Positions 17,742 to 49,134 of a stretch of 64,000 bases of DNA are shown piece by piece (position 1 is the stretch's first letter; the number at the start of each line of letters is the position of its first letter). Source of the DNA: Anolis carolinensis (Eukaryota); the NCBI RefSeq assembly GCF_035594765.1, contig NC_085842.1, forward strand, positions 4,339,256-4,403,255, written 5' to 3'. The notes beneath the pieces were generated by a model. The model worked only from the letters and a program-made list of their open reading frames with translations. It did no database searches and had not been told where the DNA came from. A program made the translations under genes and the position numbers.

Positions 17742-19411
17742 TTATTTATATAGAGCAACAGATATCTATATATCTCTATTAAGTGTTAAGTTGTTCTGTA
17801 ACTAAATCAAGTATGACACTGATTTATAGAGTGCATATAATATGTACGGTAAGATTATTGTTACTACTGATACTAACAATAATATTACTGTACATATTAC
17901 AGTACAGTCTCACTTATCCAACCTTCACTTATCCAACAATCTGGATTATTCAACACGGTCGGCCTCCTGCCACGATCCACAGCTGTTTCTCTAGGCAGCA
18001 AGGACTGAACTTTTCACGGATTTAATTCCCGACAATGTTGTTGCTGTAAGGTCATTCTATGCAATTCTATCTTTATTTGTAGTGTTTTTCTTAGTAGTCA
18101 AAGTTTTTGCAGTCAATGTTTTCAATACATTGCGATGTTTTGGTGCTAAATTTGTAAATACAGTAGAGTCTCGCTTATCCAACATAAATGGGCCGGTAGA
18201 ACATTGGATAAGCGAAAATGTTGGATAATAAGAAGGGATTAAGGAAAAGCCTATTAAACATCAAATTGCATTATGATTTTACAAATTAAGCACCAAAACA
18301 TCATGTTTTACAACAAATTGATCCCTTCTTATTATCCAACATTTTCGCTTATCCAATGTTCTGCCGGCCCGTTTATGTTGGATAAGTGAGACTCTACTGT
18401 ATATGCATTGTATAAATCAGTGTCATAATTGATTTAGTTACAGAACAACTTAACACTTATATAGATATACAGTAGAGTCTCACTTATCCGACTTTCTGGA
18501 TTATCTAACGCATTTTTGTAGTCAATGTTTTCAATACATCGTGATATTTTGGTGCTAAATTTGTAAATACAATCATTACTACATAGCATTACTGCGTATT
18601 GAACTACCTTTTTCTGTCAAATTTGTTGTATAACACGATGTTTTGGTGCTTAATTTGTAAAATCACAACCTAATTTGATGTTTAATAGGCTTTTCCTTAA
18701 TGCCTCCTTATTATCCAACATACAGTAGAGTCTCACTTATCCAACACTCGCTTATCCAACGTTCTGGATTATCCAACGTTCTGGATTATCCAACGCATTT
18801 TTATAGTCAATGTTTTCAATATATCGTGATATTTTGGTGCTAAATTTGTAAATACAGTAATTACTACATAGCATTACTGCGTATTGAACTACCTTTTTCT
18901 GTCAAATTTGTTGTATAACATAACGTGATGTTTTGGTGCTTAATTTGTAAAATCACAACCTAATTTGATGTTTAATAGGCTTTTCCTTAATCTCTCCTTA
19001 TTATCCAACATACAGTAGAGTCTCACTTATCCAACACTCGCTTATCCAACGTTCTGGATTATCCAACGCATTTTTATAGTCAATGTTTTCAATATATCGT
19101 GATATTTTGGTGCTAAATTTGTAAATACAGTAATTACTACATAGCATTACTGCGTATTGAACTACTTTTTCTGTCAAATTTGTTGTATAACATAACGTGA
19201 TGTTTTGGTGCTTAATTTGTAAAATCACAACCTAATTTGATGTTTAATAGGCTTTTCCTTAATCCCTCCTTATTATCCAACATATTTGCTTATCCAACAT
19301 TCTGCCGGCCCGTTTATGTTGGATAAACGAGACTCGACTGTAATTACTTCCCGAAATGTCAACATGTTTACTTTGGAAGGGATACATTGTATTCTTGTTT
19401 TGGATACTCAC

Positions 19412-19576
19412 AGGAAATTTGGCGAAGGCGATTTTGCTGCTTCCTTGTTCCTTTTGCAGGCGGCAGATCACTCGCATTCAGATGAACAAAAGCCGGGGAG
19501 GATGCTTGCACGGCGTGCGTGTTTCTCTCCTCGGCATCTCTTTCTCTCCAGTCCGACACACCCTTCACTTGGGATC
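19412..19576 (-). CDS. ZNF-A internal exon (165 nt, phase 1-1)
   Basis: ccttttcccctcctgcag|GATCCC...ATTTCCT|gtgagt. Open frame SQVKGVSDWRERDAEE...NRLRQIS in unique, non-repeat sequence. Confidence 0.6.
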
Positions 19577-22259: not shown

Positions 22260-22377
22260 TTTTGGGGCCTCTTTTTCTCATGGGAAGAAAAAAAGAGTGC
22301 GTTTTAGAGTCATGTAGTTGCATAGAATCTGTATGTTTGCATGAGAGGTTGTTATGCTTTGTGGGCAAGCTGGCCAT
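22260..22377 (-). CDS. ZNF-A first coding exon (exon 22402-22260, ATG at 22377)
   Basis: Long polypyrimidine acceptor ..ccacctgcctcag| at 22402, Kozak ATAATGG, MASLPTKHNNLSC...RKRGPK, donor A|gtgagc (phase 1). Joins the three downstream exons into a 1512-nt open frame. Confidence 0.55.
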
Positions 22378-23183
22378 TATTATCCTCGGTTCCTGGACGA
22401 GTCTGAGGCAGGTGGAGAAAGCAGAGAGGGGAAAGAAAGAAAACCAGACTGCCTCGGCCTCTTCTCTTTCATTGTTGTCTCTTTTGGGGACAAAAAGGCG
22501 GCTGATGAAGGGGCTGCTGGATGTAGGCTCTCCTCTTTTCACCACTTAGGCCTGGCTGCCGTATCAGGGACGGCTGTCTCCCTGGCAATGGTTGGTGCAT
22601 TATTTTTTTCTCCACATGTTGGAGGGGGCCAGAGCTAAGGGGTTATATCTTGCACATGCACTGTGTTGTTTTCTTAATGTTTTGGATTTTTTTAATGTCC
22701 TTTTTTGGGGTTTTCTTTTTTCTTTGTGGTGGTCAGTCATTGGGTAGTGAGTTTTGTGGCCAAATTTGGTGTTATTTGCTCCAAGGGTTTTGCTATTAAT
22801 TCGGTTCTACAAGCAGTATACAGTATAAACAGTAGAGTCTCGCTTATCCAACATAAACGGGCTGGAAGAACTTTGGATAAATGAAAATGCTGGATAATAA
22901 GGCAGGATTAAGGAAAAGCCTTAACAAATTGACAGAAAAAGCAGTTCAATATATGGCAATTATGAAGTAATTACTGTGTTTACAAATTTACCAAAACATC
23001 CCAATGTATTGAAAATATAGACTACAAAAAACATTGACTACTAAAAGGCAGACTACGTTGGATAATACAGAATGTTGGATAAGGGAGGTTGGATAAACAA
23101 GACTCTACTGTATATAGATTATATGGGTTGGGTGCAATAATAATAATAATAAATGTGTGTGTGTATTTATATGTGTGTATGTG

Positions 23184-23218
<35 letters not shown>

Positions 23219-23594
23219 GTGTGTATATAGATATACACAATATAATTTACAATAATATATATATTAATTATAACATATTGTATATACATATAATATTCAT
23301 ATTATATTGTATATACATATAATATTCATAATATTATATTGTAATACGATATAATACTAATAATACAATATAATAATATTAATTATATATTATATTTTAC
23401 ATGTAATATTACTAATAATATTACAATATATTGATACAGTACAATATAGTAATTTATTACCAGTATTGCACTGTGCTAATATAATATTGTATGTAAATTT
23501 AATTTGTAAGCCGCTCTGAGTCTCCTTCGGGGTGAGAAGGGCGGCATATAAATGTAGCAAACAAACAAACAAATAAATAAATAATAAACCTCTA

Positions 23595-23905
23595 TAAAAC
23601 TTGGATTGATTACAAAAAAGCATTTGACTCACTGCCACATTGCTGGATTATCAAATGTCTAGATGTCATCGGGGTTTGTGAAAATATTAGAAAGTTCACT
23701 GAAAACGCAATGAAACAATGGAAAACTGAGTTGTTCATCATTGCAATGGTCCCTCTGTCAGTAATTCTACAGAAAACAAACCTGGGCTACGAAACAGCAA
23801 GAAATTCACCAAAAATGTCCCACTTGCTGTACATGGACGATCTACAGCTTTATGGAAAATCAGAAACAGAAATCCAGTCCTTGACCAACACAGTCAGAAT
23901 TTTCA
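23595..23905 (+). mobile_element. R4/Dong RT fragment
   Basis: Degenerate WIDY.KAFDSLPH and HLLYMDDLQLY motifs. Confidence 0.65.
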
Positions 23906-24349
23906 CAGTGCCACGTTGGATAAGCGAAAATGTTGGATAATAAAGAGGGATTAAGGAAAAGCCTATTAAATGTCAAATTACATTATGATTTTATAAATTA
24001 AGCACCAAAACATCATGCTTTACACCAAATGGACAGAAAAATTAGTTCAAGATACGATAATGTTATGTAGTAATTACTCTATTTACGAATTTAGCACCAA
24101 AACATCGTAATATATTGAAAATATTGACTACAAAAACATTGGCTACTAACAAATTGACTACAAATGAAGATAGAATAGCATAAAATGAACTTACAGTAAC
24201 AACATTGTTGGAAGTTAAATCTGTAAAATATTCAGTCCTTGCTGCCTAGAGAAACAGCTGTGGATGGGGGCAGGAGGCAAACTGCATTGTATAACCCAGA
24301 ACATTGGATAAGCAAATGTTGGATAAGCGAGACTCTGCTGTATTTTGGA

Positions 24350-25578
24350 TTCATAGAATCCTAGAACAATAAGTTGGAAGAGTCCCCATGGGCCATCTAG
24401 TCCAACGCTCTGCCATGTCAGAAAAGCACAAAGTATCCCTGACAGATGGCCATACAGCCTCTGTTTAAAAGCCTCTCCACCACACTCCGAGGCAGAGAGT
24501 TCCACCGCTGAACAGCTCTTCTTGTGGTCAGGAAGTTCTTCCTAATGTTCAGGTGGAATCTCCTCTTCTGTCATTTGAACCCATGGCTCCGAGTCCTAAT
24601 CTCCAGGGCAGCAGAAAACAGGCTTCCTCCCTCCTCCCTCTGACTTCCCCTCACATATTTCTATATGTCTCTCATGTCACCTCTCAACCTTCTCTTCTGC
24701 AGGCTAAACAAACCCAGCTCTTTAAGACACTCCTCATAGGGATTCCTGGACGATCTAAAGACCTTTGATCATTTTAGTTGCCCTCCTCTGGACACCTTCC
24801 AGCTTGTCAGTATATCTCTTAAGCTACGAGGCCCAGAATTGGACACAATATTCCAGGTGAGATACTGGTCAAATGACATTTTAGAAAAGCCTTAAAAACA
24901 TGGCTATGTGCTCAGGCTTTTAACGAATAAACAACAAAGAAGACCCAGACTGATGTATGGATAAAGCATGAGGATATTGGATGAACGGATTTTAACCATA
25001 TGTTTTATATTTTATACTGTATTCAATTGTTTGTAATAGATTTTATATGCTGTTTGATTTTAATGATGTGTCGGCATCGAATTGTTGCCAGTTGTACGCC
25101 GCCCTGAGTCCCTTCGGGTGAGAAGGGCGAGACAGAAATATTGGAAATAAATAAATAAATAAAATTTAGTATAATGCCAAATTGTTGTTTTTAAAACTTT
25201 GTGTTTTCAAATACATTACAACTTGTACCCTGGGTTTGCTTCTGACACGATAAATAAATCCAGGTGAGGTCTAACCAAAGCAGAATAGAGAGGCACCATG
25301 ACTTCCTTCGATCTAGACACTTCAGATGCAACCCAAAATCGCATTGGCCTTTTTAGCTGTTGGCTCATGTTCACCTTGTTCTCCCTGAAGACTCCAAGAT
25401 CTTTCTCACATGGACTGTTGGGGAGCCAGGCGTCACCCGTTCTGTATCTTTGCGCTTCTTTTTTTCTGCCTAAGCATCATATCCTACATTTGTCCTTGTT
25501 GAAATTCATGTTGTTAGTTTTGGCCAATCAGCTCTCTAACCTATTACAGTCATTTTGAATTCTGATCCTGTCCTCTTG
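24350..25578 (-). mobile_element. CR1 LINE 3' fragment, interrupted by an L2/Vingi-tail insertion (~24862-25258)
   Basis: Similar to 57069-57915. The insertion is flanked by a duplicated tccaggtgag. Confidence 0.75.
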
Positions 25579-26589
25579 ACAGCGCTCCCTCCTATAGATA
25601 TCGAATCTAGACCACAATAATTTGGGGATCCTGCCTGGCAAGGAATGCTAGCAATTAATTAAGTTCCGAGATTAGAATTAACTCAGCAAAGGCAGTTGAA
25701 GACACAAGACATACGTAGATTTATTCATCCATGGCTGGAGACCTGTGGACCCATGCCCAAGAGATAAGTTGGGCCACATGTTCTCCTGCAAAGAGCTAAA
25801 TAGAGTCTATTTCACTTTTACTGTTTGAATCCTCCCTCCCTTGCCCGGAATTGGCTGAGCCTTCAATGAAATCTCAGTGGAGACAAGGCTCTGGGGGTGG
25901 GGAGGAGTTCACAGAGGGGAGGTTTGGAGGATGTTATGACTATGGGATCCACATCCCTGAGAACAATGGAGGGTCTGTTCAGGAGGAAGCTTGACTTGAC
26001 AAACCAGTTTAGAGAGTATATGAATGTCTCTCACCCTTGGTAGACAAAAGGCATTGGGGTTCCTTTGTGAGTTGTTTAACATGGATTCCAGTACCTTTAC
26101 CACATGTTCATTTCTGCTATAAATATGTATATAAGGTAAAGGTTCCCCCCTGACTTAATCCAGTTGTGTCCAACTCTGGGGGTTGGTGCTCATCTCCATT
26201 TCTAAGCCAAAGAGCCGGCGTTGTCCGTAGACACCTCCAAGGGCATGTGGCCACTGGCATGACTGCATGGAGAACCATTACCTTCCCACTGGAGCGGTAT
26301 CTATTGATCTACTCACATTTGTATGTTTTCAAACTGGTAGGTTGGCAGATGCTGGGGCTAACAGTGGGCACTCATTCTGCTCACCGGATTCGAACCTGCA
26401 ACCTTTTGGTCCGCAAGTTCAGCAGCTCAGCGCTTTGACACACTGCGCCACCGAGGGTCCCATATATACTGTATATATATATAATCATCCTATATATAGT
26501 CATCCCAGTCATCCGCAAACCCAATCAACAATTGGGCCATACATTTTACAGAAAACCCACATACACGGATAGATCTACATAAAAATTCC

Positions 26590-27385
26590 AACCGTCATTT
26601 AAGTAAAAAAAAAAAAAGCACAATTAAATCCCTGGCAGACTGTGTGAAAAAAATCTGTGAAGCCCAACTCCTCCAAGAGGGACTGAATCACCTCAACTGG
26701 ACTCTCCAGGCCAATGGAGACTCCACCACAGACATCAGAAGAGCTGCAAGGCCAAGAACAAGACAGGAAGAGTCAAGACAAAGATCCACCCAGACGAAAA
26801 GGGTTCTCACCATATATCAAGGGAACCACTGACCGCAGAGGAAAGCTGATGAAGAAACACAACCTACAAACTATCTACAGACCAACGAAGAAAATCCAAC
26901 CAATGCTGCGTTCAGTGAAGGACAAGAGGGATCCTCTCACCTCTGCAGGAGTCTACTGTATACCATGTATCTGTGGACAAGTCTACAGAGGGATAATCAA
27001 ACACAGCACTGCCCAAACTTGAATCAAGGAACGTGAAAGGAACGGCAGACGTAAGTCAACCAGAGAAGTCAGCCATAGCAGAGCACCTGATGGACCAACC
27101 TGGACACAGGATATTATTTGAGAACACAGAAATGCTGGACCACTCCAACAACTACCATGCCAGACTACACAGAGAAGCCATTGAAATCCACAAGCATGTG
27201 GGCAATTTCAACAGAAAGGAGGAAACCATGAAAATGAACACAATCTGGCTATGAGTATTAAAAAAACTATTAACATCAGGACAGCAAAAAAAGAACAACA
27301 CTTTGAAAACAGAGGAATTCCAGACATGAATCAATCAGGGCCAGCTAATACCTCCCAACAAAGGATTCCCAGGCAGGAAGGTGCA
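26590..27385 (+). mobile_element. Penelope-like element 3' part (GIY-YIG region), degenerate
   Basis: PYIKGTTDR, AGVYCIPCICGQVY.G, KSAIAEH and HREAIEIHKH..NFNR motifs. Confidence 0.8.
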
Positions 27386-27499
27386 AGGCCTTGCTGAAAT
27401 CAAGATATGCTAGATCAGGCCTGGGCCAACGTGGGCCCTCCAGGCGTTTTGGACTCCAACTCCCACAATTCCTAACGCCTGGAGGGTGTTAATTCAGGC

Positions 27500-28625
27500 C
27501 TGGGCCAACTCCAGGTGTTTTGGACTTCAACTCCCACAATGCCTTGTACTTTCCTCCTCCTCCTCCTCCCTTCTTCCTCCCACCAAGTAAACAAGCTCCT
27601 CCCAGGCACTTTCCGGAAGTGACGTCAGAGGAAATTGCGTCACTCTCTTTCTCCATTAGCATTCCCTACCTCTCTAGGAAGCTGAGCTCGCATTTGGAGG
27701 ACTCAGGTGGGACCCAAAGGCGCTTCTTCTTTTTCTTCCTCTATTTTCCTGCAAAGGTAAGCCTTGAGGAGGGTAGGAGAGTTAGAAAGGGAATAAATAC
27801 AAATCCCAACGGGCGAGGGAATGAGGTAAACTGTGAGGCCCTGATGTCACGTGATTGGGCCGCGTCGGGGAGGGGTTGAGCCAATGGGACGCTGATTGGT
27901 AGGACTCCTCTTCGGATTTGAATACGGCCCCTGATTGGCTGTTGCTGTGGCGACGCCAGGGCGGTGCTCCGGCCTGTTTTATGCCCAGTCAGGGAAGGAG
28001 GGGGCGCGCTGAGTAAATGCGAACGTTGAGCGCGAGCGCTGATTGGTGGGACGCCTCTTTAGATTTGAATACGGCTCCTGATTGGCTGTTGCTCTGGCGA
28101 CGGCAGGGCGGTCCTCTTGCCTGTTTAATGCCCCGTCAGAGTAGACGCAGGAAGGAGGGGGCGTGCGCTGAGTATACTGAACGTTCAGCGTGAGCGCTGA
28201 TTGGTTGGGACTCATGTCTGGATTTGAATACGGCTCCTGATTGGCTGTTGCTCTGGCGACGGCAGGGCGGTCCTCTTGCCTGTTTAATGCCCCGTCAGAG
28301 TAGACGCAGGAAGGAGGGGGCGTGCGCTGAGTATACTGAACGTTCAGCGTGAGCGCTGATTGGTTGGGACTCATGTCTGGATTTGAATACGGCTCCTGAT
28401 TGGCTGTTGCTCTGGAGACGGCAAGGAGGTGCGCGTTCCCGTTTTGTGCCCAGTCAGGAAAGACGCGGGAGGGAGGTGGCGAGCGCTGATTGGTGGGACG
28501 CCCGTTGAATTTTGAATACGGCTCCCGATTGGCTATTGCTGTGGAAACGTCAGGGCGGAAGGAGGAAGAGGGTTGCGAGCGCCCTTAGTCACGTGTAGGG
28601 AAGCCGAGTGGAAGGGAAAAGGTGA
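27500..28625. promoter_or_regulatory. CpG-island promoter between divergent ZNF-A and ZNF-B
   Basis: CpG-dense. ETS-CRE CCGGAAGTGACGTCA at 27613-27627, E-boxes GTCACGTG at ~27846 and ~28588, more than 10 CCAAT boxes, plus-strand donors aag|gtaagc (27757) and aag|gtgagt (28622). Confidence 0.8.
27891..28560. repeat. Five tandem copies (about 130-159 bp; last copy partial) of a CCAAT / ATTTGAAT / CCAAT / X-box-like module
   Basis: Units start gctgattgg at 27891, 28038, 28196, 28355 and 28485. The central units are nearly identical. Confidence 0.9.
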
Positions 28626-29111
28626 GTTGCAATCCTTATCTCACTTATCCGAGCTTCACTTATCCAATGTTCTGTATTATCCAAGGCAGTCTGCTTTTTA
28701 GTAGTCATGGGTTTTGTAGTCAATGTTGCAATGTTTTGGTGCTAAATTCGTAAATACAGTAATTAATACATAACATGACTGTGTATTGACATGCTTTTCC
28801 TGTCAATTTCTTGTAAAACATGATGTTTTGGTGCTTAATTTGTAAAATCATAATGTAATTTTATGTTTAATAGGCTTTTTTCTTAATCCCTCCTTATTAT
28901 CCAAGATTTTCGCTTATCAAATGTTCTGCCAGCAACGTTATGGAGTAATTACTGTATATACGATTTTAGCACCAAAACATTGCCGTGTATTGAAAACATT
29001 GACTACAAAAAGACAGACTGCATTGGATAATACAGAACATTGGATGAGCAAAGATTGGATAAGTGAGACTCTACTGTAATATTACTAATAATATTGCAGT
29101 ATGGCAGTATA

Positions 29112-29342
29112 TTTATTTATTTATTTATTTACAGCATTTATATTCCGCCCTTCTCACCCCGAAGGGGACTCAGGGCGGATCACATTACACATATAGGCAA
29201 ACATTCAGTGCCTTTTAACATAGAACAAAGACAAACAAACATAGGCTCCGAGCGGGGCTCGAACTCATGACCTCCTGGTCAGAGTGATTCATTGCAGTTA
29301 ATTGCACTGGCTTGCTCTCCCGCCTGCGCCAAGCCCGGGCTG
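29112..29342 (-). mobile_element. tRNA-derived SINE with an L2-type tail
   Basis: Head similar to 38530-38610 (cactctgacca.gaggtcatgagttcgag), plus ctgagtccccttcggggtgagaagggcgg and an (aaat)n tail. Confidence 0.6.
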
Positions 29343-29446
29343 TGTATAGTTATACGAAATACTAATATTGTGCTAGGCTAATCATATAATCTATTGTATA
29401 TACATATAATATTGATAATATTACAATGTGGTACAGTATGATACTA

Positions 29447-30222
29447 CAAGGGTTGAATGAAAAGTAATGCCTCCACCTTCGTAACTCTTCAACAGATGGC
29501 GTCACTGGTCTGTGGCAGGTACTGGCTTGTTCAGTAGACTCTCCTCTACAGTTCCGTTTCGCGGGAAGCCTTAGCATTGAAAGGTTGTGTTGTTAAAGTG
29601 CAAAGTATGGAACCCTGTGCAGACGGTCGGTCAATGCGATTTAAGCAACGTGCAGTCATTGAATTCTTGACAGCAGAAGGTGTCACCCCAAAGGAGATTC
29701 ATCAGAGAATGCAAGCTGTTTATGGTGATTGTGTTGATGTGAGTCTTGTGCGTCGTTGGGTGAGTAAGTTGGAAGATGTTGAGGTGGGAACATCTGACTT
29801 GCATGACAAACAAAGAGTTGGAGGTCCTGTGGCAGCAACTACTGGGTTTCACAAGCAAAAGGTTGACAGATTGATTCAGGACGGTTGTGATATCACTCAG
29901 AGAGAAATGTCAAACATATTCGGCATTGCACAAGAATGTGTGGGTTACATTATTGCTTTGCTTGGCTATTGGAAGATTTGTGCACGATGGGTACTGTGAG
30001 AAGCTGGTTGCGGAAACAGTGTCGACTTCTTCCATGACGGCTTCAGAAAACGTGTTCATCGTTGGCAGAAATGTATCCAATTGTCTGGTGATTATGTGGA
30101 AAAGTGAATAGTGGTAGTTAAAGAGCACATTCTAAGGATTATTTCTGCGTTTGATTTATTAAAATATTCCCATCCAAACCCAAGTAACGAAGGTGGAGGC
30201 ATTACTATTCTTTCAACCCTTG
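29447..30222 (+). mobile_element. Internally deleted mariner transposon
   Basis: TA TSD and ~40-bp TIRs caagggttgaatgaaaagtaatgcctccaccttcgt. Transposase N-terminal HTH remnant QRAVIEFL..IHQRMQAVYG..VRRW..KICARWV; the catalytic domain is missing. Confidence 0.85.
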
Positions 30223-31427
30223 TACAAATATGCAACTATCAGAAAAGAAATAATAATAATAATGCCACCTCTCTTTGCAATGCAGTAATAGTGTGCATAC
30301 AATATAATAATAACTCGGCTCTCTTTGCAAAACAACAATAGTCGGTATACAATATAATATTTATTTATTTATTTATTATTTTTATTTATTATTTAAACTT
30401 ATATGCCGCCACTCCCCTAGGGCTCGGGGCTGCTTACAAGAAGGATAAAATCTAACAATTTAAAAACATCTTTAAAATATCTTTTAAAAAAATATTAACA
30501 ACACACCTCTCTTTGCAAAGCAGTTATAGTGTAGATACAATATAATAATAATAATCCAATTCTCTTTGCAAAGCAGTAATAGTATACATGTAATATAATA
30601 ATAACAATAACAACGACCCACTTCTCTTAGCAAAAGCTGAAGTAGTGTACATAAAAAATATAATAATAATAATAATCCACTTCTCTTTGCAAACATAAAA
30701 ATAGGATTAAATATAAACAGTATTTTAAAATTCCTAATTAAAACCTATCAAAACATATTCAAAGTTAAATGTTCATCTGTGCCAGGGATCCTGTTCAAAT
30801 ACACAGACGAATTCCTCTGTGCAATGCACATACCTTATTTGTAGTACAAAAAAAAACCCCATGAAAGAACAATACAATATTTAAAATGAAGAACATTTTT
30901 ACCAAAATAAATGTGCCAATATTTCAGTGGAGAGTGTGGGCCTGCTTTTGGCTGATGAGAGAGTCAAGTTAATGAGGATTGTTGTTTATGTTATGTTGTT
31001 GTTGTTGTGTTCCTTCAAGTCGTTTCAGATGTAGGGTGACCCTAAGGCTAAAGTTTAGATGATAGATTGGTAAACATGTTTTAATATGTGCATTTTATTG
31101 AGTGTTTTTAAATGATTTATGTGTTTTAGCAATGCAGAGATATATAAAACTATGATTACAATGATTTTGGAGGGCTGCATCACCACCATTAAAAGACTCA
31201 TTGGGAATGTAGCTACACTGTAGAAATAATACATTTTGACTTCACTTGGATTGCCGTGGCTCAAAGTTAGGGAATCCCCAGGAGTGGCAATTTTACAAGG
31301 CCTTTTAGCTTTCTCTGCCAAACAAGGCTGGTACCTCACCAAGCTACAAGATAACACGATTCTATAGCATTGACCTGTGTCAGTTAAAGGGGTGTCCAAA
31401 TGCGTTCATTCTGCACTGCAGATATGC

Positions 31428-31570
31428 CAGGCATGGGCCAACTTTGGCCTTCCCTCCAGGTATTTTGGACTATAACTCCCACAGTTCCTAACAGTCTGCT
31501 GGCTGTTAGGGATTGTGGGAGTTGAAGTCCAAAACACCTGGACAGAAAGCTGAAGTTGGCCAATGTCTGC
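31428..31570. mobile_element. Short hAT-type MITE
   Basis: TIRs caggcatgggccaactt / aagttggccaatgtctg. Related short elements at 27416-27540 and 37973-38095. Confidence 0.55.
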
Positions 31571-31893
31571 TCTACACTGATGACTTCGTGTAGCCTGTGA
31601 TTCAGTCCAAAGCTTCTCCATGAAATCAAGGAATCTAGAGGTCCTTCAGGAGAACTTCTGTCTGCACCACTGGATCTTCTTGGTATTTGATTCTTCGATG
31701 TTCATTGAGATTGTTCATTGTCTGAAGGAGACTGGAGGTCCTTCAGGAGAACTTCCATCCACACTGCTGGCTCTTCCTGGTCTTTGATTCTTTGATGTTC
31801 ACTGAGATTGTCCATTGTCTCCTTTTTCAGGATCTGGTGGCTGTTAAAGAGAAGCCTGAATCTTCCGCAGAAGAGGAGCCTTTATTGGGAGAC

Positions 31894-31942
31894 ATGGAGG
31901 TCGTGGAGGAGAGCTCCGAGAGTGTGGCCTCCTCAGAAAGAG
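31894..31942 (+). CDS. ZNF-B coding part of exon 31831-31942 (highly eroded KRAB-A-like exon)
   Basis: cctttttcag|GATCTGGTG...GAAAGAG|gtatcc. 112 nt, phase 0 to 1, reads DLVAVKEKPESSAEEEPLLGDMEVVEESSESVASSER. In-frame ATG in GACATGG context at 31894. Confidence 0.6.
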
Positions 31943-32029
31943 GTATCCTTTTCTTGGGCTGAAGGACAAGGTTGTCCTCATTGGGGTCCATGCACTATGG
32001 GGTTGCTAGGGAAGCAACAGAATCCCACA

Positions 32030-32560
32030 TAGGTTTGAGGAAGGTTCTCTTATGATGATAGAACCCTAGACTTAGAAGAGACCTCAAGGGTGGGAGAACA
32101 CCATCCAAGCCCTCCTGACTGATGGACATCCAGCTTCTGCTTAGAAACCTTCAAAGAAGGAAAGAGACTCCACTGGAGTCCTAGGCATCGTATTCCACTG
32201 TTGAAGAATCTCATAGGTTCGAGGAAGATTCTCTTATGATGATAGAATCCTAGACTTAGAAGAGACCCAAGGGGTGGAAGGACACCATCCAAGCCCTCTT
32301 GACTGATGGCCATCCAGCTTCTGCTTAGAAACCTTCAAAGAAGGAAAGAGACTCCACTGGAGTCCCAGGCACCGTATCCCACTATTGAAGAACCTTGACC
32401 ATCAGGAGGTTCTTCTTCATGTTGAGGTGGGATCTCCTTACCTGATGTTTGAATCCAAGGCTCTGTTGTGTCCCAGTCTCTGAAGCAACAGATAAGCAAG
32501 CTTGCCCCTTTCTCCTCTTCTTCCTCAATGGGACCTCCTTCCCAATATTTAAACATGGCT
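32030..32560 (-). mobile_element. Old CR1 3' end with a ~184-bp tandem duplication
   Basis: Two copies of atagaa.cctagacttagaagagacc..gatgg.catccagcttctgcttagaaacc. Confidence 0.6.
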
Positions 32561-33984
32561 ACTTCTCTCCTTAGATGTTGTTACACAAGGTCCAAGCTCT
32601 TTTATAATATGTTGATCGGTATCTAAACACTCTGCTGACTTACTACAGAGTCGGTGATGTATGCTTGTCAAATAGTGTGTTAAAGCACTGACCTGCTGAA
32701 CTTGCAGACCGAAAGGTCCCAGGTTCAAACCCCGGGAGCGGAGTTGAGCGCCCGCTGTTAGCTCCAGCTTCTGCCAACCTAGCAGTTCGAAAACATGCCA
32801 GTGTGAATAGATCTGGGGGGAAGGTAACGGCACTCCATGCAGTCATGCCGGCCACATGACCTTGGAGGTGTCTACGGACAACGCCGGCTCTTCGGCTTAG
32901 AAATGGAGATGAGCACCAACCCCCAGAGTCAGACATGACTGAAGTTAACGTCAGGGGAAACCTTTACCTTTTTAAATTTCTCTTTGATAGTGCTGCTCAG
33001 TCCAATTGACCACTTTGTCCTCCTTTCCCCCAACAATTCTCCAGTTAAATTTTCTGTTCTCGTTAATCCTGCCTGTTCAATTATTGGGCCTAAGGATAAT
33101 AAGGAAAGTAACGGCGCTCCGTGGAGTCATGCTGGCCACATGACCTTGGAGGTGTCTATGGACAACGCCAGCTCTTAGCTTATAATAGTAATAATAATAA
33201 TAATAGTAATAGTAATAACTTTATTTTTGTATCCTGCCTCCATCTCCCTGAAGGGACTCAGGGTGACTAACACGGAGCCAAGCCCAGATAATTACAATAA
33301 AACAACATAAAATAGATGACTAGACTTAATCTCAGGGGAAAACCTTTACCTTTACCTAAGGACATTACTAGGAGTCCCCGGTGGCACAGCGGATTAAACC
33401 ACTGAGTTGCTGAACTTGCTGACTGAAAGGTTGGTGGTTTGGATCCGGAGAGCGGGGTGAGCTCCCAATGTTAGCTCCAGCTTCTGCCAACCTAGCAGTT
33501 CAAAAACATGCAAATGTGAGTAGATCAGTAGGCTCACTCCGCTCCCTGGGTTTCGAACCTACGACCTTTCGGTCTGCAAGTTCAGCAGCTCAGCGCTTTA
33601 ACACGCTGTGCCACTAGGGGCTCCTAATTAAAACTGTATAAGATATTAAAATATAGCTCTTCAATAAATTACAATTGAATAATCATTGTCTCTGTGATGG
33701 ACACCTCCTCCCCCTGTAGAGGGACAAACCACTTGTAGTCAAGAATTCTGAGAAGTGAGTTTGCTATTCATTTGAACGCAATCTAATAAGAATTCAAAAT
33801 TAAGTAAATCAGGTCTTGCCCAATATATAGCTAATTTAGATGCAGTGGATTGTGAGTAGGAAAAGAGAATGGATTATTCAGTGAAAGAGCCTAGTCTCCA
33901 ATCAGGGTATTACCTGATATTGTGTAGTTTGTGTTTGTTTAGCAATTTCCCCGGTTTGACTGTTCTGTAAACACTTGTATGTTA

Positions 33985-34760
33985 CTAGCTGTGCCCAGCC
34001 ACGCGTTGCTGTGGCAAAGTATGGTGGTATGGGAAATAACGTATTGAGGAATTGGTGGTAGTTAAGGTAAAGGATGAAGGTTTTCCCCTGACATTGAGCC
34101 CAGTCATGTCTGACTCTGGGGGTTGGTGCTCATCTCCATTTTTAAGCCGAAGAGCCGGCGTTGTCCATAGACTCCTCTAAGGTCATGTGGGATGACTTTA
34201 TGGAGCGCCGTTACCTTCCCGCCAGAGCAGTAGCTATACATCTACTCTCATTTGCATGTTTTTGAACTTTAGGGTTGGTATAAGCTGGGGCTAACAGTGG
34301 GAGCTCTCTCCGCTCCCCTAATTCAAACCTTTCGGTCCAGAAGTTCAGCACTTCAGCGCTTTAACATGCTGCGCCATCAGGGGATATTATTTCGTAAAGG
34401 TTGTGAATATACAATATTTCTGATTTATTTTTTTTGCCTGTTGGAGATGAATGCTGCAATTAGGCAAAATTATTAGCATGTAATGGAAGGTGTTAGCTGG
34501 CCCTGATGGTTTCCTGTCTGGAATACCCTTGTTTTTAGAGTGGTGTTCTTTGCGATATTTTCTGTGCTTCTATTGTCTGTGGCCCTTAGAAAACAATTAT
34601 TCCTCTATCTCTAATTAGGACTTTATTTTTCTTTTCTTTTTGTTGTATCAACCTAGAGGCGTGGATGAGGGGTTGTGCTGTCAATTTTCGAGATTGTTGG
34701 GTGTTTAGTTTTGTTGTTTTGTTGGTCACCGGGATTCCATCACTCTTTTATATATATAGA
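33985..34760 (-). mobile_element. Non-autonomous Helitron (family A) containing a Sauria SINE and a Penelope fragment
   Basis: a|ctagctgtgcccagccacgcgttgctgtggc ... cactcttttatatatataga|t. Confidence 0.8.
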
Positions 34761-34801
34761 TTCACTTAACAGCTCCATGGACTGTAATAAAGTTTAAAGT
34801 A

Positions 34802-35846
34802 CAGTAGAGTCCCGCCAATCCGAGTTCAGCTTATCCAACACTCCGTATTATCCAAGGCAAATGTCTTTCCTCACTTGCTGTCTCTTTCACTCACTCACCC
34901 CGCCGGGTCCTGGTGCTGTCAGAACCCAGCCGGGTGAGTGAGCGATGCTGCCGGGACCCAGCGTGGCAAAGGAGCTGAGGGATGGAGGGTGGGTGAGTGA
35001 AGGAGGGGGGCAAAGGCCCTCGCTTGCTCGCTCCTTCGCCAGGCCGGGCCCCGGTGCTGCCAGAATCTGGCATGGCGAAGGAGCTTAGGGGACGGAGGGC
35101 GAGCGAATGAAGGAGGGCAGCAAAGTTGCTCGCTCACTCACCACTTCGCCAGGCTGGCCCCCATGCTGCTGGGATCCGGCGTGACAAAGGAGCTGAGGGA
35201 CGGAGGGTGGGTGAGTGAAAGAGGGTAGCAAAGGCACTCACTTGTCACTACTTCGCCAGGCTGGGCCCCTTGTTGCCGGGACCCAGCGTGGCGAAGGAGC
35301 TGAGGGACGGAGGGCGGGCAAATAAAGGAGGGCAGCAAAGGTGCTCGCTCGCTCACCACTTTGCCGGGCTGGGCCCCGTGCTGTTGGGACCTGATGTGGC
35401 GAAGGAGCTGAGGGACGGAAGGCGGGCGAGTGAAGGAGGGCAGCAAAGACACTTGTTCGCTCGCCACTTCGCAAGGCCGGGACCCGATGTGGCGAAGGAG
35501 CTGAGGCACAGAGGGCGAGCGAGTGAAGGAGGGTAGCAAAGGTGCTTGCTTACTCACCACTTCGCCAAGCTGGGCCCTGTGCTGCTGGGACCCGGCGTGG
35601 CGAAGGAGTTGAGGGACCTAGGGCGGGCGAGTGGAGGGTGGCAAAGGTCCTCCCTCACCCGCTCGCTTTCTCACTCACTCGCCCCGCCAGGTCCCGGTGC
35701 TGCCGTCGCCACTGCTGGGACCTGGCCTGGTAAGTGAACGAGCGAGCGAGGGGGGCGGGCAAGCGAGCACCCACCTTGTTACCCGGCAGTTTCACTTATC
35801 TGTCATTCTGCCCGCCAGTTTATGACGGATAAGCGAGACTCTACTG
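34802..35846. mobile_element. Family-1-related MITE filled with a GC-rich ~90-bp tandem repeat
   Basis: TA-flanked cagtagagtc...gagactctactg. About 8 units of gtggcgaaggagctgagggacggagggc.. at ~34890-35760. Confidence 0.75.
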
Positions 35847-35921
35847 TAAATGTAATTATCATAATTTGAGTTTGTTTTCCCACTTTGGTGATTTCCTCTT
35901 CCAAAACTTCCCTTCCTTCAG

Positions 35922-36538
35922 GTGATTCCAAGGAGAAGAGGAAGAAGGAGGCAACTGTCGAAAATCAAGATTGGGACCACGATGCAGCTTACATTTCCCC
36001 CGAAGGGACTTACCTGCCTCAAACCGAATCACTTGGAGGAAATCGCACAGGAAATGAAATAAGCCTGCCAAAGCTGTCTGAGTTCGAGAAGAGCATCCTC
36101 CAGCCGATCTTCCACGACAAAGGCGAGAAAGCAGCCCCCAAAGTAGAGGACGTGCACCGATGCTTGGACTGTGGCAAGACCTTCAACCTCAACTCCAAGC
36201 TGAAGCTGCACCAGAAGATCCACTCCGAGGAGAAGCCCTTCGAGTGCCCCGAGTGCGGGAGGCACTTCCGCCACAAGGGGAACCTCCAGACGCACCAGAG
36301 GATCCACGTGAAGGATAAACCCTTCCGCTGCGAGGAGTGCGGGCGCTGCTTCAGCTACAGCTGGATCCTCCAGAAGCACCTCAAGTTCCACGAAAGCAGG
36401 AGGCTCCCCGTCAAGGAGAAAGCGGCTCCATCGTGGATCGGGCCACAAAAGGATCCTTCGCTCAACGGAGAAGCAACGCAAGGAGCCGTTGCTTCCAACG
36501 CTGAAGCAGAAGAGTTGACGCAGGTGTCGACTGATTGA
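35922..36538 (+). CDS. ZNF-B terminal exon: spacer, 3 C2H2 fingers and a C-terminal tail
   Basis: Acceptor cttcccttccttcag|GTGAT (phase 1). Fingers CLDC..HQKIH, CPEC..HQRIH and CEEC..HLKFH. Confidence 0.85.
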
Positions 36539-37024
36539 CGGAGTTGACCAGAAGGATCCATCCCAAGGGGGTGAATAGTCGGTGGCGATGCCTCAGTGGC
36601 CTGGGAGTTGTAGTTTAGCAACATTTTCAAGATGCCATGCAATTTCAAACACTGTCTTTAAGGGTATGGACAACTTTAGCTTGTAGGAAAAGCCTAGATC
36701 CCGTTGGGCCCGGCTGGGAATTACCACATATGAGCTGCATTTTGTATTGTCCTCCGATACTCCTTTTTTTTCCCCTCACAAGACCAAAAATAAGCCATGA
36801 TTTGTCTCTCATTTTCAAGGCAACGTCTTCATAGGTTTTCAAGGACTGGAGTTGAGTCTGTGGTTTGTTAAGTTGAGAATACTTTCTTTTTTCAATGCCC
36901 TCGCGTTGTGGGTTTGGTTCATTTGTGTTTGATTAAAGGCATTGTTGAGCTTGCGTGCTTCTTGGTCTCCTGACTCTTGAGAATCGCTCTTCAGCAGATC
37001 TTCCTTGAGAGAGAGTGGCCCTTT

Positions 37025-48335: not shown

Positions 48336-48479
48336 CCTAGTGAGATACAGTGGGAATAGTGGCCAAAGAATCTGATTTGAGTTTTTCATATTGCAATGTG
48401 TTAACCAAGTAATTCAAACTTTGTAAAGGAGAAGATCTTGAAATATGGCCAATGCAGGATGGAGTAAATATTGATGGCA

Positions 48480-49134
48480 CCTATTAGGACACGGGGGCGG
48501 GGCCAGAGGAGGGGCGGGGCCTCTTCCCAAGTGCCGGAGACAGGGCTGAGGACCTGAGGCACCTGTTAGGACACAGGGGGCGGAGTTAGAGGAGTGGGCG
48601 TGGCTTCTTCCCAAGAGCTCGAGACAGGGCTGAGAATCTATACCTCTCCTGAGGCGCTTGTTGGGACACAGAGGGCGGAGCTAGGGGTGAGGGCGGGGCC
48701 TCCTTCCAAGAGCCTGAGACAGGCCTGAGCCTCTTCCCAAGAGCGTGAGACAGGGCTGAGCCTCTGTACACTTCCCTTGAGGTGCTTGTTAGAACACGGG
48801 GGCGCGGTATAGAGGTTCAGCCCCGTCAGGCACTTGGGAAGAGGCCCCGCCCCCTCCTCTAGCCCCGCCCCCTGTGTCCTGACAAGCACCGCAGGACAGG
48901 GATAGAAGCTCAGCCCTGTCTCAGAGCTCGTAACTCCGCCTATCCCAGTCCACTTGAGGCCCCGCCCACCTCCCCTCGCAAGCCTGCATCTTGGACTAGG
49001 GGAGAGGCTCAGCCCCGCCCTCTTGAGCAGGAGCCACGCCCACCCCTCTAAGCCACGCCCCCTTCCCAGGGGGCACTGAGTCATATTTTTTTCTGGAAAG
49101 GGGGCGGCAGGCCAAACAAGTTTGGGAACCATTG
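48480..49134. repeat. GC-box-rich direct and inverted repeat array ending in a hAT-like terminus
   Basis: Repeated ggggcgg(g/a)gc..ctcttcccaag..gagacagggctga units, then their reverse complements. Ends aagtttgggaaccattg. Confidence 0.6.

Follow-up and report, generated by a model that had tools for sequence, protein, structure and literature searches.

The window, that is, the whole 64,000-nt stretch analyzed here, contains three zinc finger arrays, namely ZNF-A (- strand, 11 fingers, at about 10 kb), ZNF-B (+ strand, 3 fingers, at 36 kb), and ZNF-C (- strand, 18 fingers, at about 46 kb). We placed 4 of 24 listed public runs (X9, X14, X19, and X20), all four in the form of contigs and chosen because they contain the stretch, on positions 23500–36650. 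Contig 18 of run X20 (671 nt, depth 81) joined 28386–28621, 31831–31942, and 35922–36244 on the + strand, both joints being GT..AG, and the sole ATG of its first 400 nt opened a 221-aa frame exactly identical to XP_008121827.1, the Anolis carolinensis "zinc finger protein 22". The ZNF-B gene comprises an exon 1 region at 28386–28621, left through the donor at 28622, exon 2 at 31831–31942 with the start codon at 31894, and a last coding exon at 35922–36538, which encodes 3 C2H2 fingers and no SCAN domain. Because this spliced contig leaves from donor 28622 and encodes XP_008121827.1 exactly, the tandem array of CCAAT boxes described below is located at the 5' end of the "zinc finger protein 22" gene, and the ZNF promoter proposed in the initial annotation is thereby supported for the + strand gene. 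The evidence for splicing is one contig from one run of the four, and its two GT..AG joints suggest an RNA library, a nature that is otherwise a guess, as none of the listed runs is recorded as RNA.

The start of the contig at 28386 was rejected as a transcription start, given that the de Bruijn model forks exactly there. In the same run, the contig over units 2–4 of the array had a depth of 3.2, similar to that of an intron contig (2.4), whereas the spliced contig reached 81, and this contrast hints at abundant starts in or after the last units. Nine ATGs lie between 27821 and 28373 and open uORFs of 2–58 codons; transcripts starting within the upstream units would carry such short uORFs.

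ZNF-B is a SCAN-less paralogue of the A. carolinensis ZSCAN31-like protein XP_062829274.1, to which it is 74% identical over the last exon and from which it differs by the absence of the N-terminal ~190 residues with the SCAN domain. Its Anolis sagrei counterpart (XP_060616730, 216 aa) likewise had no SCAN match, so that these 5' coding exons were likely lost before A. carolinensis and A. sagrei diverged. Regular expressions returned no KRAB or SCAN exon, and Pfam returned neither domain in 127 + 145 stop-to-stop frames (at least 38 aa on the - strand and at least 34 aa on the + strand, 3 N-containing frames set aside), the only matches being weak ones to POPDC1-3 and a mariner HTH. Intron 1 carries a decayed mariner-type transposase fragment at 29450–30150 (HTH_48, E 0.0015), and intron 2 a GC-rich 108/201-nt minisatellite at 34900–35760 (CpG o/e 0.66), which was nearly uncovered in X14, X19, and X20 and was used as a GC control.

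The CpG island and its flanking elements

The entire promoter region falls within a CpG island at 27586–28639 (1054 bp, GC 0.56), which exceeds the island thresholds of GC >50%, CpG o/e >0.6, and >200 bp. Its CpG o/e was 0.86, and that of the array 0.96, against 0.39 for the whole window, bearing out the island described initially. Near its left end lies a perfect, overlapping ETS-CRE motif match (CCGGAAGTGACGTCA, + strand, 27613–27627) that was absent from the initial annotation, and a degenerate copy of this composite stands at the equivalent place in the single-copy paralogue of the array. A candidate alternative first exon follows on the + strand, from approximately 27640 to 27756, with a donor GT at 27757 (score 7.08). 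As had been observed before, E-boxes bracket the array: GTCACGTG occurs at 27846 and 28588 and nowhere else in the window. The first overlaps an extra GATTGG (27846–27858, + strand), the ATTGG of which, at 27854, precedes the first box of unit 1 by 41 bp, and the second was found by motif scan at 28588–28595 (+ strand).

Among 3569 + strand GT dinucleotides, nine scored >6 by a weight matrix, and the donors at 27757 and 28622 belong to these nine. Both of these donors, named in the initial annotation, are strong, and 28622 is used; since both are on the + strand, they do not provide one donor per direction and are not divergent. No splice joint from 27757 appeared among the 15 of 209 joints listed, and X20 has a gap in cover at 27714–27739; neither blank carries evidential weight.

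A MITE-like element with 76-nt inverted arms (28639–29068) starts 17 nt past the used donor. One X14 contig loses its match at 28639 and has variants at 28605–28609, and may represent an allele without this insertion. Just 5' of the ETS-CRE, at 27415–27544, two ZNF143/SBS-like motifs (27453 and 27524) are part of a dispersed repeat with other copies at 31.4–31.5 and 38.0 kb, and a ZNF143/SBS-like motif belonging to a different repeat lies upstream of the paralogue (about 420–400). Rfam gave 0 matches in 26500–30000.

The five-unit array and its single-copy paralogue

The array consists of five units, the 65-nt cores of which start at 27900, 28047, 28206, 28365, and 28494 and are 78–100% identical to the reference copy. 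By motif scan, GATTGG, TTTGAAT, and a second GATTGG are present in 5/5 units, which confirms the five-fold module first reported. On the + strand, these motif cores span 27894–27954 in unit 1 (GATTGG / ATTTGAATA / GATTGG / X-box-like), 28041–28101 in unit 2, 28199–28260 in unit 3, 28358–28419 in unit 4, and 28488–28548 in unit 5, which carries TTTTGAATA and is the unit closest to the used donor; TTTGAA lies at 27917, 28064, 28223, 28382, and 28511, respectively. The paired CCAAT boxes are 39, 39, 40, 40, and 39 bp apart in units 1–5, and 41 bp for the extra box.

Successive unit starts are separated by 147, 159, 159, and 129 nt. Given that these spacings are irregular, with 159 in only 2 of 4, we rejected the nucleosomal meaning that had been attached to a ~159-bp period. 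The two spacings of 159 are due to a single perfect duplication, a period-159 repeat at 28062–28415 in which 195 positions are identical at offset 159 and which represents the youngest duplication. In an ungapped comparison of 80 columns, units 3 and 4 shared 77 and the other unit pairs 61–70; amplification was therefore stepwise. The five TTTGAA copies represent a single ancestral event.

The X-box-like GTTGCT.TGGCGAC, previously ascribed to every unit and read as RFX-like, occurs in three of them, with GGAGAC in unit 4 and ATTGCTGTGGAAAC in unit 5. Among the array units, 3 of its 14 columns differ, so that it is not better kept than spacer (P 0.35), for a pattern that was itself fitted to the array. 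Compared with the paralogue, 6–8 of the 14 columns differ, again no better than spacer, and the putative RFX X-box is not conserved there. In place of the X-box, the paralogue has AATGGCGG at 42–52 (- strand), which we take to be a YY1-like motif. A palindrome-like element, GAACGTT(C/G), is common to units 2–4, where it lies 5' of the first CCAAT (approximately 28021–28028, 28180–28187, and 28339–28346), and to the paralogue, which has it twice.

The paralogue is a single-copy module with ATTTGCATA at 42–121 on the - strand. It is preceded by an ETS/CRE-like site and by a donor (at 167), as in the layout of the array locus (ETS/CRE-like site, donor, then module). The initial annotation was right to point to a left-edge relative with ATTTGCAT: the match is supported by nhmmer (E 4e-6) and blastn (74% over 82 nt) and is the only non-array match below E 0.1 among 15 nhmmer rows. 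Its middle site is a perfect octamer, ATTTGCATA, one base apart from the ATTTGAATA of the array, and the CCAATC-N8-TAT(G/T)CAAA distance is constant in 6/6 copies, the gap to the first box varying by ≤2 nt. Anchor columns excluded, 1/9 columns of the octamer block differed between the paralogue and units 1–3, against 12–13/24 spacer columns (P 0.03–0.05), and 2/9 against 14/24 in unit 5 (P 0.07); among the array units, 1/9 block columns were variable against 8/24 in the spacer, which was not significant (P 0.21). As the octamer of the paralogue, like the middle site of the array, stands 8 nt from the second CCAAT, CCAAT-octamer-CCAAT is the likely ancestral module, and the ATTTGAATA of the array likely arose from it by a change of one base that brought it into agreement with the LIN54/CHR consensus.

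This polarity has modest support, from the one paralogue and from two unrelated sequences. The long exact pattern, with either middle base, was found at five metagenome loci, which represent three independent sequences. The CHR-form match at L001 is probably due to chance, as it lies inside a 319-aa bacterial-type ORF. L002–L004 represent a single non-coding sequence in which the middle site is the octamer, and L005 (378–730), also non-coding, contains four CCAATC-N8/9-TATGCAA copies in two tandem pairs with GTCACGTGAC E-boxes, apparently a convergent amplification of the same CCAAT/octamer composite. With n=2, the metagenome support for an ancestral octamer is modest. A search of 596 Gb of prokaryote genomes with the long pattern gave 0 matches, as did a search of viral contigs; a loose CCAAT/octamer scan of the viral contigs returned about 590 stretches, which is chance level by a rough estimate. 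Modest support likewise exists for CCAAT-N8/9-octamer as a recurring composite. In the literature searched, which was poor in older and subscription papers, we found neither this locus nor the N8 composite described.

At the histone H2B promoter, CCAAT boxes and the octamer cooperate. A role of Oct-1 at histone H2B is also given in PMC4176359. A POU factor might still bind the variant ATTTGAATA beside NF-Y in the array, as a functional Oct/NF-Y composite in which copy number would offset the weaker site. Such a composite is consistent with the retention of 8/9 octamer-block bases and of the N8 distance, and with the independent tandem CCAATC-N8/9-TATGCAA copies and GTCACGTGAC E-boxes of L005. 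However, the altered base sits in the octamer core, and no POU binding to the variant was found in the literature searched; we consider this alternative improbable.

A transposon or LTR piece with LTR12-like tandem CCAAT repeats, exapted as a promoter, was also considered. LTR12 U3 provides a precedent, with 5–17 CCAAT-bearing repeats of about 41 nt (PMC11853044), and the window is transposon-rich, the ZNF143-like motifs at 27453 and 27524 being themselves in a dispersed repeat. However, the summed contig depth of the array bin was 1.4–12.6 in three runs and 179 in X9, while neighboring transposon bins reach depths of thousands to hundreds of thousands. This low depth argues against any family at 95% identity, a measure that older families could escape, and together with the presence of one paralogue in the window it gave no indication of a dispersed multi-copy family. 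Given also that this only relative in the window, an old one, has a gene-promoter layout, and that the CpGs are undecayed, a transposon origin seems very improbable.

Read coverage, copy number, and the - strand gene

Unspliced contigs covered the island at depths of 7–13 in X14, 5–27 in X19 (left part), and 77–194 in X9. In the unique flanks, bins of X14 and X19 had depths of 0–0.6, and contigs of X9 were mostly at 5–17, with one at 43 (23602–23699). The island excess in these three runs fits open-chromatin or ChIP libraries, for preselected runs whose library types are unrecorded.

In a de Bruijn model with k=31, alleles with 4, 5, and 6 units yielded identical contigs. The repeat-to-flank depth ratio was about 2.1 in X9 (as expected from the reference) and 0.9 in X14 (as expected with one period fewer), where contig depth is not copy number and the libraries look enriched; we discarded the shape and the depth of contigs as a basis for counting units. 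Length variation could plausibly arise from the perfect 159-bp duplication.

The 11 C2H2 fingers of ZNF-A are encoded by an exon at 9792–10915 on the - strand, upstream of which two further - strand exons are predicted: a candidate internal exon at 19373–19576, with an alternative donor at 19412, and a candidate exon with an acceptor and ATG at 22260–22402. Together with the finger exon, these candidates gave frames of 467–481 aa in 3/12 trial chains (3/6 of those with the 22.4-kb exon). The candidates need a further 5' first exon, and the array island is the only CpG island upstream of the 22.4-kb candidate before 35 kb; on the - strand, the boxes of the array appear as CCAAT. The strongest - strand donor close to the array (27670) is weak (score 4.08). 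Among the joints (15 of 209) and loose ends (24 of 1132) listed, there was no - strand exon, nor a loose end at 27670, the latter blank having no evidential weight. No protein relative of the ZNF-A linker was found, and the putative product starting with the Met codon at 10880 was absent from the protein collection searched. A bidirectional promoter that also serves ZNF-A is plausible, somewhat more likely than not.

Several observations concern the neighboring genes. The only match to the 19.5-kb exon (E 6e-4) was rejected, as the protein is unrelated, has repeated KH-like motifs, and is no true relative. The ZNF-A finger exon has a tandem (NAGNAG) acceptor at 10915–10912; when spliced from the predicted donor at 19412, one of its two sites introduces a stop and the other preserves the reading frame. 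Upstream of ZNF-C, at 48400–49100, GC-box-rich tandem repeats (periods 84–95) lie apparently within a transposon and could act as a substitute promoter.

Readings of the probable promoter and known systems

TTTGAA, present in 5/5 units, is a canonical CHR (TTYRAA), and CCAAT plus CHR had led the initial annotation to propose a DREAM/MuvB architecture. LIN54 recognizes TTYRAA, TTTGAA being optimal (PMC4974476), and TTTGCA, the non-CHR middle site of the paralogue, is Oct1-like and poorly bound by DREAM, which binds TTTGAA best (PMC4176359). One base could therefore switch the reader from Oct-1 to MuvB. In such a scenario, a C-to-A change would have made an Oct-1 site a LIN54 site, and amplification would have produced five NF-Y/CHR/NF-Y units, through which DREAM would repress ZNF-B in G0/G1 and MMB/FOXM1 (in testis, A-MYB-MuvB) would activate it in G2/M. 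The invariance of the hexamer in the array is consistent with this gain of a CHR promoter, as are the array polymorphisms seen (28062, 28077, and 28520), all three of which, a small n, lie outside the motifs. An isolated CDE/CHR binds DREAM within foreign DNA, CHRs lie at or near the start, and the CDE is needed by only 23% (PMC4176359); the unit-5 site at 28511, probably close to the start, would be within 125 nt of a start, inside the 200 bp expected for a CHR, provided that starts fall in 28386–28621.

However, the layout is not that of cyclin B2, where the CCAAT boxes are ~33 bp apart (PMC3287175), a typical and not obligatory arrangement: in the array they are 39–41 bp apart, and the CHR is located between them. 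An NF-Y contact range of -7 to +17 (PMC4982600) would moreover put the second NF-Y 2 bases into TTTGAA. The hexamer is also common by chance, with 70 occurrences in the window against 79 expected, and in a 159-nt sequence of island composition P was 0.09 for TTTGAA and 0.54 for any of 10 validated CHR hexamers. Finally, 0/148 human CHR genes in the table of PMC4176359 are, by name, clustered multi-finger ZNF genes. What stands of the proposed architecture is the canonical hexamer, whereas the spacing, the position between the boxes, and the Oct-1 site of the paralogue depart from it. We regard a gained CHR promoter as a tentative alternative, and on balance an unlikely one. The fuller scenario, in which an octamer-to-CHR switch by one C-to-A change, amplified five-fold, put a young ZNF gene (perhaps with its divergent neighbor) under DREAM/MuvB, the unit number still varying and tuning expression, appears quite unlikely.

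The best explanation, to which we give slightly better than even weight, is that the array is an ordinary CpG-island, housekeeping-type NF-Y promoter of "zinc finger protein 22", the CCAAT-octamer-CCAAT module of which was duplicated to five. We read it as a promoter with predicted NF-Y binding because the CpGs are intact (array o/e 0.96), ZNF-B is spliced from donor 28622, and contigs are in excess over the island; the X20 contig and the ORF identity, in one run of 4, place the array where a promoter of this class is expected, 5' of a gene that is transcribed and spliced. NF-Y trimers would fill the paired CCAAT boxes, which at 39–41 bp are about four helical turns apart, and the island would be kept nucleosome-poor, while flanking ETS/CREB and E-box factors would supply broad, constitutive activity. 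Most starts would lie in or just past the last units, and the upstream units would be redundant proximal elements, possibly also driving ZNF-A on the - strand. Historically, a family promoter (ETS-CRE, short exon, donor, and module) would have been copied along with ZNF gene duplication, ATTTGCATA would have changed to ATTTGAATA in the array copy, unequal exchange would then have multiplied the unit, and the latest step would be the one perfect 159-bp duplication. The CHR match would be incidental or weak, and the period would have no nucleosomal meaning.

If the NF-Y promoter reading is true, the locus is a clear case of ZNF-cluster promoters growing by tandem duplication of whole factor-binding modules, for which the unamplified paralogue 28 kb away is a built-in control. 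The pair also poses the question of whether turning an octamer into a CHR by one base, with NF-Y boxes on either side, suffices to place a gene under the cell-cycle program. The fixed CCAAT-N8/9-octamer distance, found in unrelated sequences as well, may be an under-described composite element.

Promoter VNTRs are reportedly known to affect expression, and the array resembles them in its tandem units (>6 bp), its minisatellite size, its 5' position, and a very recent perfect duplication. With ETS-CRE composite promoters, in which an overlapping ETS-CRE motif has been described (PMC3464117), the locus shares the perfect CCGGAAGTGACGTCA at 27613, which in contrast lies outside the array, before the candidate alternative first exon. 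The CHR/DREAM promoters CCNB2 and UBE2C (PMC3287175, PMC4176359, PMC4974476) similarly have TTTGAA and several CCAAT boxes near the first exon; unlike in these promoters, the array spacing is 39–41 rather than ~33 bp, the site is between the boxes, the module has five copies, and the paralogue has an octamer. Oct-1 and NF-Y act together at GADD45A (PMC7037490), and the paralogue is comparable in having ATTTGCATA at a fixed distance from CCAAT, whereas the array has a one-base variant, and the literature searched gave no example of exactly this N8 geometry. LTR12/ERV9 U3 regions (PMC11853044) share tandem amplification of an NF-Y module with CCAAT boxes about 41 nt apart, although the array unit is 129–159 nt and belongs to a host gene promoter, and nothing here points to a repeat family or an LTR.

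The closest resemblance in sequence is to double-CCAAT NF-Y promoters (PMC4982600, PMC4889920), with which the array shares direct ATTGG pairs, a CpG island, a spacing near the 41-bp peak, and E-boxes with GC-rich sites. In human promoters, tandem CCAAT spacing peaks at 31, 41, and 52 bp, 41 being a common secondary value (PMC4982600), general partner factors of NF-Y are described in PMC4889920 and PMC3730095, and the direct pair near 31 or 41 bp that marks double-CCAAT promoters is present here. The anole array differs in that the pair and its middle site are repeated five times, and in that the spacing is mostly 39–40 rather than 31 or 41 bp. We place it in this class rather than among DREAM promoters, VNTRs, or bidirectional promoters. 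Having the sequence features of this class, the array is predicted to work like a double-CCAAT NF-Y promoter, and it is not a new kind of system, tandem amplification of a CCAAT module being already known from LTR12.
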